Sequence record: OZ035786.1
Length of the DNA: 45,312 nucleotides
Reading direction: 5' to 3' (one strand)
Source of the DNA: Veterinaerplatzvirus T145P1
In this document: positions 3,940 to 45,031 of the stretch, piece after piece
How positions within the stretch are numbered: the stretch's first letter is position 1
Layout: each line of letters begins with the position of its first letter
Position numbers and translations under genes: made by a program
The notes under the pieces: model-generated
Told to the model about the DNA's origin: nothing
Database searches by the model: none
The model's input: the letters and a program-made list of their open reading frames with translations, nothing else

Positions 3940-5028
3940 ATGTCTAAAATCCGATATGACAACGCAAAGTTTAAGGCAACAATCGACGAGAATGGATTCT
4001 TAGTAGATACGCCAGTTGTCGCACGTCTCGGCGTGCAAGTCTACTACATGGAGGACGGCCGCACTGTTCGGGAGTTTCGCCCAGCCGAGGAGGTTTTCAA
4101 AGATGAATCTCTAGCGAGCTACCAGGGCAAGCCAATGACCATGGACCATGTTTTCGTTAACTCAGAGAATGCTAAAGAGGTGGTGGTAGGATCGGTTGCT
4201 GGAAAGGCGGAGCCATTAGGCAGCTCTGTAGTTGCTCCAATTGTTATTTACGATAGTGCCGCCATCAAGGAAGCCATGGCAGGTAATGCAAAGGAGTTAT
4301 CCGTTGGATACTCATCAGTTATTGATTACACCCCCGGCTGGGGCGACCCTGTTACTGGCGAGTACTTCCTCAAGTCTGAAAGTGAGCTATTCGACGTACC
4401 AGAAGGATGGCAGGAGTTCGACGCAATTCAGCGTGACATTAAAGTGAACCATCTGGCAATGGTGTATCGCGGTCGCGCAGGCATTGCCAAATTGAATATG
4501 GACGGTGAGCAGGAAAACCCGTATACTACTGACGTTGATATCAATAAAGAGGATAAACAGGAAATGACAGTTAAAATTAAACTCGACGGCGCGCAGGAAT
4601 TTGAGGTCGCCCCGGAAATCGCCTCTCACATCGAAGCACTGAACGCAAAGGCTGACACCGCAATCGCAGAGCGCGATTCTCTGAAAGCTAAAGTAGATGC
4701 AATGCCAGCTGAAATCGAAGCTGCCGTTGCTAAAGCGAAAGCTGATGCTGATGCCCTAGCCGCTCTGGTTGCTGTTGCTGCTGAGGCTGGTGTTAAGGCT
4801 GACGGTCTGGATGCTAAAGGCATTAAAGTTGCTTACGTTAAAGAAGTCTCCGGTCTTGATGTTAGTGAGAAGTCTGACGCATACATCGACGCGGCATTCG
4901 ACATTGCCAAAGAATCTGATAAAATGGCTGAAGTACGTAAAGCAACTACTGCTTCCGACAAATCTGACAGCGCCGATGAGCCTAAGAAATTAGACCCACG
5001 TGCTCGTTTAGCTAAAATTAAGAAATAA
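3940..5028 (+). CDS. capsid morphogenesis protein (scaffold-like, possible prohead protease-scaffold)
   Basis: Track ORF starts at GTG 3925; in-frame ATG 3940 has SD gaggag 7 nt upstream. C-terminal third is Ala/Lys/Glu-rich coiled-coil-like, typical of scaffolds. Confidence 0.55.
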   Translation: MSKIRYDNAKFKATIDENGFLVDTPVVARLGVQVYYMEDGRTVREFRPAEEVFKDESLASYQGKPMTMDHVFVNSENAKEVVVGSVAGKAEPLGSSVVAPIVIYDSAAIKEAMAGNAKELSVGYSSVIDYTPGWGDPVTGEYFLKSESELFDVPEGWQEFDAIQRDIKVNHLAMVYRGRAGIAKLNMDGEQENPYTTDVDINKEDKQEMTVKIKLDGAQEFEVAPEIASHIEALNAKADTAIAERDSLKAKVDAMPAEIEAAVAKAKADADALAALVAVAAEAGVKADGLDAKGIKVAYVKEVSGLDVSEKSDAYIDAAFDIAKESDKMAEVRKATTASDKSDSADEPKKLDPRARLAKIKK

Positions 5029-5040
5029 GGAGTTATAAAC

Positions 5041-5562
5041 ATGGCAATTCGTTCCGTAGCACTGGCTGGTATGGTTTCTGATACTTCTCTGTACAACATC
5101 GACGGCGCTTGCGTAGTTGGCGGCGCAGCAGCCATTCCGGTTGGCACTTTTGTTGGCGTTACATCAGCTCAGCCTGTAGATGGTCACAAAGTTGTTGGGC
5201 TTCCTGCTGTGACTGGCACACCAGTTAAACCTTACGGTGTTGTTGTTAAATCTCATTATGAGACTCCAGATGGCACCGCTCGCGTAAATGAAGCGGTTAA
5301 CGTGATGACACACGGTCGAATCTGGGTTCGTACAACTCTAGCGGCTGCGCCAGTTTTTGGTAGTAAGGTTTACGTAAACGCGAGTGGCGTTGTTGCTGCT
5401 AAGGCTGCTACCACTACCTGGGAAACTGGTTTTACATTTGCTGGTGGCTATGTGTCGGCTTACGCTGGCGGCGCTGACCCAATTAAGCAAGGTGAAAGCG
5501 TTGATGGTGCAATGGTTGAGGTTCAGTTGATTCAATCAGCAGACTCAACTGTCGCCGCTTAA
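5041..5562 (+). CDS. capsid-associated structural protein (putative decoration or minor head protein)
   Basis: 173-aa Gly/Ala/Val-rich ORF between scaffold-like gene and major capsid gene, SD aaggag. Confidence 0.4.
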   Translation: MAIRSVALAGMVSDTSLYNIDGACVVGGAAAIPVGTFVGVTSAQPVDGHKVVGLPAVTGTPVKPYGVVVKSHYETPDGTARVNEAVNVMTHGRIWVRTTLAAAPVFGSKVYVNASGVVAAKAATTTWETGFTFAGGYVSAYAGGADPIKQGESVDGAMVEVQLIQSADSTVAA

Positions 5563-9336: not shown

Positions 9337-9369
9337 TACCTCATCGAAACGAAATGAGAGATTAAAGAA

Positions 9370-20510: not shown

Positions 20511-20549
20511 TTTGTATTCCTTATTAAGTTGTTTCGTTTTGATGTAGTA

Positions 20550-31176: not shown

Positions 31177-31397
31177 TGGCAATTTTTACATTTGAGAATC
31201 AATGGGAAGTATTTAAATTAATGGCAATGCAGGAGTTAAATAAAGCAGGATATCAACCAAACTCATACGATCTTGCTGAGTCATTGGACTATAGCTTTGA
31301 AGAAGATTACCTGAACACTGATATCGAAACATGGCGCGACCGTATGGTTGCTGATATCGAAGAAATGAAGAAAGATTGCCCGGAGGATTTCTTATGA
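31176..31397 (+). CDS. hypothetical protein
   Basis: 73-aa acidic ORF, translationally coupled. Confidence 0.5.
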   Translation: MAIFTFENQWEVFKLMAMQELNKAGYQPNSYDLAESLDYSFEEDYLNTDIETWRDRMVADIEEMKKDCPEDFL

Positions 31398-31594
31398 TTA
31401 ATAATAGACCGTTCGTTGTTACGTTTAAGCCAAGAAACAACACCCCACGGATGGATATTGATGAGTACCTTCTAAAGCGCGGGAATAGCTATTTTGTTCT
31501 TGAAATTTCCGCAGACTCAGATAGATACATCGTTAAAAACGATGCGGGTATTGTTGTTAGTGTTTCAAAATTAGATGTGGAGATTGTGAGATGA
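31394..31594 (+). CDS. hypothetical protein
   Basis: Track start is TTG 31376; ATG 31394 has SD ggagg and overlaps upstream stop (ATGA). Confidence 0.45.
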   Translation: MINNRPFVVTFKPRNNTPRMDIDEYLLKRGNSYFVLEISADSDRYIVKNDAGIVVSVSKLDVEIVR

Positions 31595-39470: not shown

Positions 39471-39754
39471 TCGTTAGATTTATGTATTGTTGCAGATATT
39501 GCAATGATTCACTTGATTATTGCACATACAGCAATATTGCTTCCGATGCAATGATGTTTTTGATTGTTGCGAAAAGTGAAATTAAGTGGTGAGTGAGTGA
39601 ATGAAAGATGGATGGACTACCATACAAGTTGATTTTTACCAATCTATGGGAGCCTCACGGATATACGCGTATCCTCCGTATACTCAGTGTCGTCACAAAA
39701 GTTAGTGACCACTAACCTACGTTTTTACGCGATATATACACACGATATACAATA

Positions 39755-40738: not shown

Positions 40739-40782
40739 ATAGCACTTTTTGCCTAACGCGGTAATGCCATGGATGGCATAAT
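40739..40782 (+). promoter_or_regulatory. phage promoter family copy (variant with hairpin in spacer)
   Basis: atagcactttttgcctaa, spacer with atgcca/tggcat inverted repeat, cataat, cctcatcgaaacgag leader. Confidence 0.5.
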
Positions 40783-40820
40783 AGCCTCATCGAAACGAGA
40801 TACGTAAATGAGGATTTAAA

Positions 40821-41039
40821 ATGAGCAAGGTAATCACACTGCAATGCCTTAAGACAAATAACCCAGAGTTCTTAAAAGGTCACAAATATGTGGCAACCCT
40901 GGTGGATGGGAAAACATGGGCGGTTAAGGGTGGATTCCAGGATTACAAATTCCCACTTGAGCACATACCTGGCGGAAACCTTGGTTTTGTTAGTGACTGC
41001 CGCTCAGTTAAGTTTGTTTTTGAGGTTGTAATGAAATAG
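40821..41039 (+). CDS. hypothetical protein
   Basis: 72-aa ORF, stop inside next promoter motif. Confidence 0.5.
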   Translation: MSKVITLQCLKTNNPEFLKGHKYVATLVDGKTWAVKGGFQDYKFPLEHIPGGNLGFVSDCRSVKFVFEVVMK

Positions 41040-41079
41040 CAATAATTGCTAAATCTTCCGCAAGGCCATTTGATATAGT
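41036..41079 (+). promoter_or_regulatory. phage promoter family copy
   Basis: atagcaataattgctaaa, 22 bp, tatagt embedded in aaggcca/tggcctt inverted repeat. Confidence 0.55.
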
Positions 41080-41120
41080 GGCCTTGTTGAAGCAAAACAA
41101 CCAATCACGAGGTATAAATT

Positions 41121-41348
41121 ATGGCTATCAATAGTGTTCGAATCTCTGACGACTACAACGAGCAGGCTGAGGTTCTTGTTTACAAAGTCTTCAATATCGA
41201 TCGGGATACAATGAAGGTTAAGCTCGACCTCAATCCTGATAACGAATCATATCCGTCAACATACATGCTGTACACGCCAGACCAGGCTCGCCAGTTAGCA
41301 GCGTATCTGATGGAAGCGGCCCACCGAGCTGATAAGGGGGTTTTATGA
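41121..41348 (+). CDS. hypothetical protein (small paralog family member)
   Basis: 75 aa; shares IRI-D...QAEV and YTPDQARQLAAYL motifs with 41593..41802. Confidence 0.5.
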   Translation: MAINSVRISDDYNEQAEVLVYKVFNIDRDTMKVKLDLNPDNESYPSTYMLYTPDQARQLAAYLMEAAHRADKGVL

Positions 41349-41560
41349 TTACCGATCGCAAGCTCTTTAAAGACATGGAAGGCGATGACTGCTGGATTGA
41401 CACGATGACAAATTTCGGAGATGTCACTGTCGAGATTGTAATTGACGATGAATCTGGAACCTTTCCCGTGCAAGATGCGGATACCGTACGCGCAATGGGT
41501 GAGCACTTAATCAAGATGGCTGACTACATGGAGAGCCAGGGGAAATTAGCTGTAAATTAA
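41345..41560 (+). CDS. hypothetical protein
   Basis: 71-aa acidic ORF, ATGA overlap with upstream gene. Confidence 0.5.
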   Translation: MITDRKLFKDMEGDDCWIDTMTNFGDVTVEIVIDDESGTFPVQDADTVRAMGEHLIKMADYMESQGKLAVN

Positions 41561-41592
41561 TCAAGATTCGCATTATCAATAACAACGAGGAA

Positions 41593-41802
41593 ATGAAGAT
41601 GGAAAATATTCGTATTGAAGATGTTCACTTTGACCAAGCTGAGGTCGGAATCACAAAAAGCGCTCGCGGAGACGTTGTATATCTGGACTTTAATCCGGAT
41701 GACTACGGGGACGGCCAGATGCTGATGCACTACAGTCCTGATAAGGCGCGCAAATTGGCGGCAGCATTAATCCTGGCGGCGGAGGAGGTGGAGAAGCAAT
41801 GA
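41593..41802 (+). CDS. hypothetical protein (small paralog family member)
   Basis: 69 aa; aligns with 41121..41348 (MKMENIRIEDVHFDQAEV, YSPDKARKLAAAL). Confidence 0.5.
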   Translation: MKMENIRIEDVHFDQAEVGITKSARGDVVYLDFNPDDYGDGQMLMHYSPDKARKLAAALILAAEEVEKQ

Positions 41803-42059
41803 AACGTTTAATGAAATGCATGACTATTATTGCGGCAATGATTGCTCTTACTGGTTGCGAGAAGGCACCTGAGGTTCAGATTCAGTCAGGTGAATTCAAT
41901 GTGGAGCGCCTATTCACAGTGGATGGATGTACCGCCTACCGATTCCGAGATAGCGATAGAGCCATCTACTACACAAATTGCAATGGCAGTACGCAGAGTG
42001 AGTACAGGCACGGCAGGGCCATGAGACAAGAAACAGTTCAGACAGATCGCACTAATTGA
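41799..42059 (+). CDS. lipoprotein (early region)
   Basis: Signal peptide with lipobox IALTGCE; 86 aa with 4 further Cys. Confidence 0.5.
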   Translation: MKRLMKCMTIIAAMIALTGCEKAPEVQIQSGEFNVERLFTVDGCTAYRFRDSDRAIYYTNCNGSTQSEYRHGRAMRQETVQTDRTN

Positions 42060-42242
42060 TAAAAGGGGATCCATCCTGACTGGTATAATCCCCAGCATCA
42101 ACCACATGAATGGAAGTTAAGTGACGATATACGAACATAAATTCAGTAGCAGGGGTATTGATATGCTCCTGCGCTATGTAGACGAAAAATACGCAAATCT
42201 CATGCTTAAGACGCATGGCGGCACAATAACGAGGATTGAGAT

Positions 42243-42572
42243 ATGAGTAAATACGATCGCAAGATTATTGGCATTGATGGCACAGTAACAACAGTAGATG
42301 TTTATCGTGTTCTTGATGCGTTTGGCGTATCTGACCCAGCCACTCAGCATGCGGTAAAGAAGATGCTTTGCACTGGCCTGCGTGGACACAAGGATTACTT
42401 AACTGACCTTAATGACTCCATTGAGTCACTACAGAAGGCTAAAGAGATTTACTGGCAGAAGATGATTCATGAATCCGATAAAATCACTGATTCAATTTTA
42501 AATCCACCAAAAGAAGCGAGATTTAGTACTGCTAATGGTTCAGAATTCACTTTCGGAAAGGTTAGAGTCTAA
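42243..42572 (+). CDS. hypothetical protein
   Basis: 109-aa ORF; upstream TGgTATAAT extended -10 at about 42081. Confidence 0.5.
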   Translation: MSKYDRKIIGIDGTVTTVDVYRVLDAFGVSDPATQHAVKKMLCTGLRGHKDYLTDLNDSIESLQKAKEIYWQKMIHESDKITDSILNPPKEARFSTANGSEFTFGKVRV

Positions 42573-42616
42573 ATAGCACGAATTGCTAAACCCGCTCCTG
42601 CGGGTTTTGTTATAGT
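42573..42616 (+). promoter_or_regulatory. phage promoter family copy with terminator hairpin in the spacer
   Basis: atagcacgaattgctaaa, spacer contains cccgc-tcct-gcggg followed by ttttgtt, then tatagtta. Confidence 0.55.
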
Positions 42617-42644
42617 TAGTTCACACCAATCGAGAGGTAAGAAA

Positions 42645-42737
42645 ATGAAGCAATACACATCAAGCAATCACCATAACGGTCACATCATGCAGTTCTATCG
42701 CCACAATCTGAAGACTAAGGGAGTGTTTGGAAAATGA
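42645..42737 (+). CDS. hypothetical small protein
   Basis: 30-aa ORF ([18 protein letters not shown]...) with SD gagaggt; stop overlaps next ATG. Confidence 0.3.
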
Positions 42738-42952
42738 TTACAATTAACCTGTCAGAAAAGCAAGCAGCAGAACTCAAGTGCATGCTGTCAATCTTTGAGA
42801 AGACAAATGACCGAGCAATTGCAAAAGAGGTCACGACTCAAATCAACAACCAGCAGTTCGACGTCAGTGACTTCGAGTCGTCACGGCAGTACGAAGCATT
42901 AAGCGTCAACGCTGCATACCTGGCTAACTGGGATAAGGCAACGAAGAAATGA
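42734..42952 (+). CDS. hypothetical protein
   Basis: 72-aa ORF from the track. Confidence 0.5.
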
Positions 42953-43086
42953 TTTACATCCACACGTACTACACTGGTAAGTTTAATAGCGTCAAACATG
43001 TCCGTGTTCACGATAACTACGAGAGCGCAAAAGCTCAATGGTTGGTTCTTGGTGGTGACATTAATTCATACAGAGTTGCTGAGTAG
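42949..43086 (+). CDS. hypothetical small protein
   Basis: 45-aa ORF ([15 protein letters not shown]...), ATGA overlap upstream, TAG stop inside next promoter motif. Confidence 0.35.
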   Translation: MIYIHTYYTGKFNSVKHVRVHDNYESAKAQWLVLGGDINSYRVAE

Positions 43087-43126
43087 CACTAATTGCTAAA
43101 ACAGTATTGGGGTAATTTGTTATAGT
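43083..43126 (+). promoter_or_regulatory. phage promoter family copy
   Basis: gtagcactaattgctaaaa, 22 bp, tatagtta, ccccatcgaaacgagagagg leader. Confidence 0.55.
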
Positions 43127-43156
43127 TACCCCATCGAAACGAGAGAGGAATAAGAA

Positions 43157-43336
43157 ATGACATTTCAACAAAGTGAGCCAAAGCTCCAGGCTAATCACTT
43201 CGATGGTTATTCGACCTTTATCATTGCCCAGGCCTGCGGGATGCGTGACGAACCACAGGTTCACACAATTCACTTAACCGAAGAGCAGGCTCGAGAGATT
43301 GCTTACGAAATTCTTGAGCAATTGAACCGAATTTAA
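43157..43336 (+). CDS. hypothetical small protein (possible paralog family member)
   Basis: 59-aa ORF; C-terminal LTEEQAREIAYEIL resembles the motif of the 41121 and 41593 proteins. Confidence 0.4.
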   Translation: MTFQQSEPKLQANHFDGYSTFIIAQACGMRDEPQVHTIHLTEEQAREIAYEILEQLNRI

Positions 43337-43385
43337 CGCGACTAAAGCGCATTCTAACGAACGATAATTTAAGTAAGGTGATTCT

Positions 43386-43547
43386 ATGATTAAGATTGTT
43401 TATGTTGGCGAGAGTGATTATGTGGCGCTCATTCAGCGTGGTGATGTGTTCTTCGCTGAGCTAAGTGAGGATGGAAAATATTACATTGTAAAGAATAAGA
43501 ATGGCGAGGATATTTACCTATCAAAAGATGAGGTCATAGTTCACTGA
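43386..43547 (+). CDS. hypothetical small protein
   Basis: 53-aa ORF (MIKIVYVGESDYVALIQRGD...), SD aaggtg. Confidence 0.4.
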   Translation: MIKIVYVGESDYVALIQRGDVFFAELSEDGKYYIVKNKNGEDIYLSKDEVIVH

Positions 43548-43678
43548 TGGATAACTACGAATCACCAAGCCAGTGGGCCAAACGAATGCAGGACGAAGCC
43601 AAGACTGGTGAAGAGGCGATGGCTTACTACGAGCTAGCGCAAATTTGGATGAAGCGGGAGGGCAAGAGCAATGATTAA
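43547..43678 (+). CDS. hypothetical small protein
   Basis: 43-aa ORF (MDNYESPSQWAKRM...), start overlaps upstream stop (TGATG). Confidence 0.3.
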   Translation: MDNYESPSQWAKRMQDEAKTGEEAMAYYELAQIWMKREGKSND

Positions 43679-44954: not shown

Positions 44955-45031
44955 GCTCGAGTGGCGAAAGTGGATATCGCAAGAGACTTCTAATCTCTAG
45001 ATTGCTGGTTCGAATCCAGCCTCGAGCGCCA
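44955..45031 (+). tRNA. tRNA-Arg (anticodon UCU), CCA encoded
   Basis: Hand-folded cloverleaf: acceptor gctcgag/ctcgagc, D-stem gcga/tcgc, anticodon stem agaga/tctct with loop cttctaa, T-arm gctgg-ttcgaat-ccagc, discriminator g, CCA. Confidence 0.75.

Follow-up and report, generated by a model that had tools for sequence, protein, structure and literature searches.

Phages often carry small accessory genes that are paralogues of one another, and the 45,312-nucleotide DNA of Veterinaerplatzvirus T145P1 (sequence record OZ035786.1; this whole stretch is called the window below) raises the question of which members of a run of small genes descend from one ancestor, and what their products might do. 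The window is a near-complete genome of a T1-like phage (Drexlerviridae), as judged from the region 40800-43600. Patches of that region show 80-90% identity to Rtp, SU57, the BASEL 'Piccard' phages and numerous further Drexlerviridae, and as a whole it matches Veterinaerplatzvirus T145P1 at 99.9% identity. Four open reading frames (ORFs) concern us here, namely genes A (41121..41348), B (41345..41560), C (41593..41802) and D (43157..43336), all of which are present on the plus strand where a first-pass annotation of the sequence had placed them. That annotation had described them as a family of small paralogous early proteins, each behind its own promoter copy, with A and C alike over their whole length, D sharing their C-terminal helix motif and B doing so more weakly, and it had suggested a part in host takeover or anti-defence.

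Our results show that a family of proteins of about 60-75 amino acids (PHROG 13316 and relatives) is represented here by A, C and probably B, which go back to old duplications and have since diverged. The paralogous family is real, but its members are A, B and C in tandem, and not A, C and D with B at the margin. All four ORFs are genuine genes, since the ratio of nonsynonymous to synonymous polymorphism (pN/pS) against orthologues is 0.07-0.29 across A-D and homologues number in the dozens. This ratio is 0.29 for A against CJ19, 0.24 for B and 0.07-0.10 for D, the exception to the range being C against 2725-N35 (only 11 differences), and A, B and C are under purifying selection.

Paralogy of genes A and C

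Gene A encodes 75 amino acids with an isoelectric point (pI) of 4.7 and belongs to the A-type subfamily of the phrog_13316-like family; gene C encodes 69 amino acids (pI 4.6), belongs to the C-type subfamily and matches phrog_13316 best. On their sequences, A and C are true paralogues whose homology is beyond question. BLASTP aligns them with an expect value (E) of 8e-10 and 38% identity over 58 residues, and their Smith-Waterman alignment, which runs end to end, scores 108 against a mean of 24.1 (standard deviation 4.5) for composition-preserving shuffles, 2000 of which were made for each pair; none scored as high (z = 18.5). The whole-length alignment reported by the first-pass annotation, and the shuffled controls by which it proposed to judge it, both come out in its favour. 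The motifs it quoted are correct in general, except that A reads V-R-I-S-D and not I-R-I-x-D. Gene A also fits an alignment made from 22 homologues of C, in which 13 columns are invariant, its orthologues in Nouzillyvirus phages are 54-74% identical to it, and the phrog_13316 profile matches A at E 6.6e-5 and C at E 2.1e-14. The true start of C is probably the ATG at 41599 (MENIRI...) rather than that at 41593, because a GAGG lies 8 nucleotides upstream of the former and only 2 nucleotides upstream of the latter, and because most homologues start at the equivalent methionine.

When all 341 ORFs of the window were compared with one another by BLASTP, A and C were the only strong paralogue pair (E 3e-11). 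The same comparison returned two further small proteins, encoded at 31376..31594 and 43386..43547 (43% identity over 37 residues, E 4e-4), which are possibly a second, weak pair of paralogues.

The wider family and the place of gene B

A search of 1.84 billion representative proteins with a profile of the A/C alignment recovered 73 family representatives at E <= 1e-3, which are small proteins carrying a C-terminal [FY]TPxQAR(E/K)LAAALIxAA(E/D)EAE motif. One remote member has the helix motif twice within a single chain, a possible case of repeat pairing. A hidden Markov model (HMM) of remote members, built from 68 of the 73 representatives and scanned against all window ORFs, matched both C (E 3e-30) and A (E 1.4e-21) over their full length. 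The phrog_13316 profile is matched by 54 of 70 members of the wider family; this PHROG has no function attached, and B and D are filed apart from it, in 16871 and 7411 respectively.

Gene B encodes 71 amino acids, with a pI of 4.1 and a net charge of -10 (phrog_16871), and is probably a diverged third member of the family. Pairwise comparison with A and C gave no signal above the shuffles. The remote-member HMM matches B at E 1e-5 over residues 7-67, and its orthologues in SU57, TH21 and an IMG/VR contig at 1e-7 to 7e-6. In profile-to-profile alignment with hhalign, the B family reaches 82% probability against the wide family (P 1e-5, 62 columns); with the narrower A/C alignment the probability is 1.4% for B and 14% for D. 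The HMM that the first-pass annotation had called for is therefore strong for A and C and supports B, and leaves D, with an E of 0.28 over 19 residues of the helix start, unsupported. On this profile evidence its ranking of the two lesser members, with D clear and B weaker, is reversed.

Gene D and the alternatives to a three-member family

The 59-residue product of D (pI 4.9; phrog_7411, E 1.1e-33) shares with the family just the helix-start motif T-E-E-Q-A-R-E-I-A, over about 18-21 residues. In pairwise comparison D has a marginal score, reached by 5 of 2000 shuffles against A and by 115 of 2000 against C. The short motif does not establish homology, and D is best treated for now as a separate, more conserved and independently distributed family. 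The inclusion of D on the strength of a shared C-terminal helix is not borne out by an HMM match at 0.28, hhalign probabilities of 14-39% and a poor structural model.

It could be argued that all four genes come from one ancestor and that D is a shortened βββα member that has lost the first strand, and although we regard this as rather unlikely, several observations speak for it. The D motif HLTEEQAREIAYEIL can be aligned to MHYSPDKARKLAAALI; hhalign against the D family yields P values of 3e-4 to 2e-3 over 18-21 columns (39% and P 3e-4 over 21 columns for the wide family); D ranks fourth of the 341 ORFs against the family profile; a profile of the D family, run on a 136-sequence set, ranks 15 true family members ahead of the first reversed decoy (E 0.003-0.04); the D model has the matching order strand-strand-strand-helix; and certain true members are only 58-61 amino acids long. 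However, the profile E of 0.28 is what is left after multiple testing, with some 19 residues aligned, and the motif is of a common helix N-cap type that carries little information. The AlphaFold model of D is of low confidence (predicted local distance difference test, pLDDT, 66.7; predicted template modelling score, pTM, 0.37), and its Foldseek matches include no A/C-family models, even though these were present in the same library. Orthologues of D in ten related loci never match the remote-member HMM, D occurs in Rtp, a phage without any A, B or C member, and tblastn finds it in 91 phage records at 80-93% conservation. Far more remote is an explanation by chance or composition, or by ORFs that are not genes, for which we see practically no room. 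It could draw on the shortness of the proteins and on their Ala/Glu-rich C-terminal helix, which is masked by the low-complexity filter of BLAST, but it is already refuted by the z score against shuffles of the same composition, by the 73 representatives and by pN/pS values well below 1, and the N-terminal strands align as well.

Predicted fold

The AlphaFold2 model of C, made from the C alignment, has a pLDDT of 88 and a pTM of 0.71, with strands at residues 6-9, 15-23, 26-32 and 44-47 and a helix at 49-68. Each copy is accordingly predicted, on this model, to consist of four antiparallel β-strands followed by an Ala-rich C-terminal helix, that is, a type II PC4-like unit. Such a unit has been defined as a ββββα chain which makes a full PC4-like domain by dimerisation through the helices (PMC7549692), and the predicted C structure shows both the single β-β-β-β-α unit and three-dimensional similarity to solved members of the superfamily. 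The structure prediction proposed by the first-pass annotation was thus informative for C and poor for D. The top structural match is PUR repeat III, which is the dimerisation repeat and not the nucleic-acid-binding one (PMC7549692); YdbC, the phage T5 PC4 homologue and Whirly come lower in the list, and COMM domains, a dimerising sheet-plus-helix module, are also among the matches. Foldseek matches in BFVD are to uncharacterised phage proteins only.

The unit predicted for A, B and C is seen in PC4/Sub1, PUR repeat III, YdbC and the T5 PC4 homologue, and all solved examples of type II act as helix-held dimers. The phage proteins differ from PC4 and PUR proteins in that they have no detectable sequence relationship to them, are acidic where those are basic, have no conserved sheet surface of aromatic and basic residues, and are encoded as several tandem single-unit genes in variable number rather than as one conserved gene. 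A parallel in setting is AcrIIA22 (PDB 7JTA), a PC4-like anti-CRISPR nickase that is a tiny protein of phages and mobile elements, lies in hypervariable accessory loci and acts as an oligomer (PMC8545432). The present proteins resemble it in their very small size, predicted PC4-like sheet and accessory locus. Relatives of AcrIIA22 would be marked by a sequence or structure match to 7JTA, a sheet-mediated tetramer without a helix and a catalytic Asp14; the present proteins do not fit this description and are not detectably related to it.

Searches of Pfam, NCBIfam and PDB sequences with A-D and the family profiles gave nothing above threshold. The C-terminal helix motif of the family resembles the end of Pfam DUF6907, to which C matches with 15 bits (E 0.038) against a gathering score of 26 bits; in the wider family 11 of 70 members match weakly, the best at 7e-4 and all below the Pfam threshold. 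Three leads were rejected. Matches to the YefM/RelJ antitoxin (E 0.2) and to Gp4.5, labelled 'TA_inhibitor' (one member at 0.0016; the poor D model by Foldseek at E 0.2), are sub-threshold and concern a different or unverified fold. The label 'DNA methyltransferase' of phrog_2060 was not used as functional evidence, the match covering only the helix region of a 124-residue family.

Distribution and copy number

Ten related loci scanned with three HMMs contain from zero to five copies of the A/B/C family. Rtp has none; AugustePiccard, 2725-N35 and LTH01 (a 141-kb member of the Vequintavirinae) have one each, JulesPiccard two and SU57 two (B and C); the present window has three, TH21 and one IMG/VR contig four each, and CJ19 five. 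The family is thereby common to Drexlerviridae relatives and Vequintavirinae, and the IMG/VR scan returned just two loci. A neighbour-joining tree separates the C-type, A-type and B-type sequences, a fourth type absent from the window and one divergent orphan, so that four or more conserved subfamilies can be told apart. This places the duplications far back, with copies kept or lost piecemeal since then. In tblastn searches, A-type genes were found in 21 phage records, B in 18 and C in 73. In each of the ten records that have both, gene B immediately follows an A-type gene, abutting or overlapping it in eight and separated by a gap of 27 nucleotides in 50EP and CJ19.

Homologues of the A/C domain also occur in Streptomyces chromosomes (loci L011-L014, at about 4800-5300 in each locus). 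They are encoded by ORFs, called mechanically, of 132-175 amino acids that extend past the domain, and they adjoin genes for an ABC transporter, a uracil-DNA glycosylase and a GDSL lipase; these neighbourhoods gave no functional clue.

Possible function of the A, B and C proteins

The products of A-D are all acidic (pI 4.1-4.9), those of A-C having a pI of 4.1-4.7 and a net charge of -4 to -10, and 61 remote members have a median pI of 4.39, with 42 below 5. The invariant residues are for the most part small ones on a single face of the helix (A52, A56, L59, A62 and A63), joined by R53, P49 and acidic or aliphatic residues of the strands, where D10, E17, V18, D32 and M45 are conserved, a pattern more in keeping with a packing or dimer interface than with a surface that binds nucleic acid. 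We infer from this that the proteins are most likely dimeric binding modules with an accessory role. A, B and C would form homodimers, or A-B or C-containing heterodimers, and these acidic modules would act on a host protein by binding it, as a decoy or an inhibitor, and serve host takeover or anti-defence as accessory factors. Coating of single-stranded nucleic acid in the manner of PC4 would be less likely, and host-protein binding is favoured over it because the proteins are strongly acidic and few strand positions are better conserved than the acidic D10, E17 and D32. The suggestion of host takeover or anti-defence is plausible, and fits the small size, the acidity, the copy number of zero to five and the sharing with Vequintavirinae. 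Taken as a whole, this explanation, with a tandem A-B-C family, a PC4-like fold, dimeric host-protein binding modules and D apart, seems to us about evenly poised between right and wrong.

Several observations weigh against it. None of the known anti-defence families was matched, and the literature searched on DUF6907 and on early or anti-defence genes of Drexlerviridae gave no function or phenotype for these genes. A-D have no match in Pfam to PC4 (PF02229), PurA (PF04845) or DUF2128 (PF09901) at E <= 1, nor do 70 family members at E <= 0.01, and PDB sequences provide no link for A-D or for the family profiles. Acidity is not universal, as 9 of the 61 remote members are basic. The Streptomyces homologues stand among housekeeping genes, which means that the domain also occurs outside phages. 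Finally, early expression of these genes, though plausible from their position, is an assumption.

The same fold would also suit a more conventional role, in which A, B and C bind single-stranded DNA or RNA and aid recombination, replication or transcription, as has been proposed for the T5 PC4 homologue, YdbC and SP_0782. We think this unlikely, since it has to accommodate the negative charge of the three proteins and of the family at large, strand residues that are acidic or aliphatic and not the basic and aromatic set of PC4 and PUR, and a top structural match to a dimerisation repeat; moreover, the genes lie among variable small ORFs outside the replication module, and whole genera do without them. 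A bolder variant of host-protein binding, which we hold to be improbable, makes A, B, C and the other subfamilies interchangeable subunits that pair in the fashion of PUR repeats into acidic heterodimeric domains; as mimics of nucleic acid or as decoys, these would be aimed at host proteins of defence or housekeeping that bind DNA or RNA. If that were true, changes in copy number would amount to a combinatorial arms-race toolkit. Between these accounts, dimeric modules that bind a host protein remain the explanation we prefer.

Promoter-like module and leader

The first-pass annotation had given each gene its own promoter copy, which is correct for A (41037..41079) and D (43084..43126) and not for B and C, upstream of which no copy is found. 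Copies of a 27-nucleotide repeat (AAATAGCACGAATTGCTAAA...) stand before the genes at 40821, 41121 (A), 42645, 43157 (D) and 44027, and a variant stands before 42121. Within the repeat is the palindrome TAGCA-N5-TGCTA, followed about 22 nucleotides downstream by an extended -10 of the form TGnTATA[AG]T and often by the leader CATCGAAACGA. Before A, on the plus strand, the upstream half of the module is the palindrome TAGCAAT-A-ATTGCTA at 41037..41051, which aligns with five other intergenic copies, and the extended -10-like element TGATATAGT lies at 41071..41079, with the spacing from the palindrome (about 22 nucleotides) seen in the other copies. No other promoter-like element serves A, B and C: the start of B overlaps the stop codon of A by 4 nucleotides (ATGA), C starts 33 nucleotides after the end of B, and neither B nor C has a module, so that the three genes share one; from this arrangement they look translationally coupled. 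The plus-strand module of D has its palindrome at 43084..43098 and TGTTATAGT at 43118..43126.

The palindrome TAGCA-N5-TG[CA]TA has 12 exact sites in the window, against 0.28 expected. Sites lie at 2117, 9294, 22881, 26708, 30742, 37238 (minus strand), 39455 (minus strand), 41037, 42574, 43084 and 43951, with variants at 40741 and 42046, and most have a TGnTATA[AG]T extended -10 about 22 nucleotides downstream. The centre of the palindrome would fall near -42, as for a class-II activator or an operator, rather than where a canonical -35 stands at 17-nucleotide spacing, and from sequence the module looks like a putative genome-wide phage promoter/operator element. It has 12-13 sites genome-wide, before structural genes as well as before small ones, and is therefore neither specific to this region nor a signature of 'early' genes. 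In literature searches that included T1-like transcriptomes, no transcription data turned up for this group of phages.

The leader block CATCGAAACGA occurs in six exact copies and one near copy in the window, against 0.74 expected. The exact copies are at 9342, 30790, 33743, 37976 (minus strand), 40788 and 43132 and the near match is at 20534, and the block stands just downstream of the -10-like elements. It may be a shared 5' untranslated region or transcription-start element.

Genome setting and neighbouring genes

Genes A-D sit within a run of small rightward ORFs that extends from a divergent intergenic region (about 39.4-40.1 kb) to a transfer RNA gene, tRNA-Arg (44955..45031), and nearly all genes of the same run in related phages are annotated as hypothetical proteins. 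The tRNA-Arg gene (anticodon TCT, reading AGA) closes the small-gene block, and its position is kept in SU57, AugustePiccard, JulesPiccard and 2725-N35. At the other end, the divergent region between the leftward and rightward gene blocks holds three direct repeats of about 20 nucleotides at 39486..39582, ATTGTTGCAGATATTGCAAT, each partly palindromic, which could be an operator or an origin-like array.

Immediately after C, at 41799..42059 on the plus strand, is a gene outside the family that encodes a predicted lipoprotein of 86 amino acids (signal peptide with a terminal lipobox, ...ALTGC; phrog_6360, E 1e-20; weak DUF4884 match). Its ATG overlaps the stop codon of C, an arrangement found here, in SU57 and in 2725-N35, and its product may be a lipoprotein of the superinfection-exclusion type. 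Matches of the 109-residue product of 42243..42572 are confined to about 75 residues at the C-terminus of phage families of 235-250 amino acids (phrog_2452; phrog_17613, labelled 'ATPase'), so that it represents a C-terminal domain standing alone or else the product of a truncated gene. A P-loop nucleoside triphosphatase at the corresponding position in AugustePiccard was rejected as its counterpart, there being no similarity between the two.

Significance

About half of the genes of T1-like phages, mostly small ORFs, are without an assigned function (PMC13164509), and three such genes now have a predicted fold, a family and a hypothesis of quaternary structure. The gain is incremental, in that the family was already catalogued, though uncharacterised; what is new is the predicted PC4-like fold, the acidity and the link between PHROGs 13316 and 16871. 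Nucleic-acid binding is what this fold is best known for, and an acidic PC4-like module would put it to unusual use; the one characterised phage precedent with a PC4-like fold, AcrIIA22, is an anti-defence protein.

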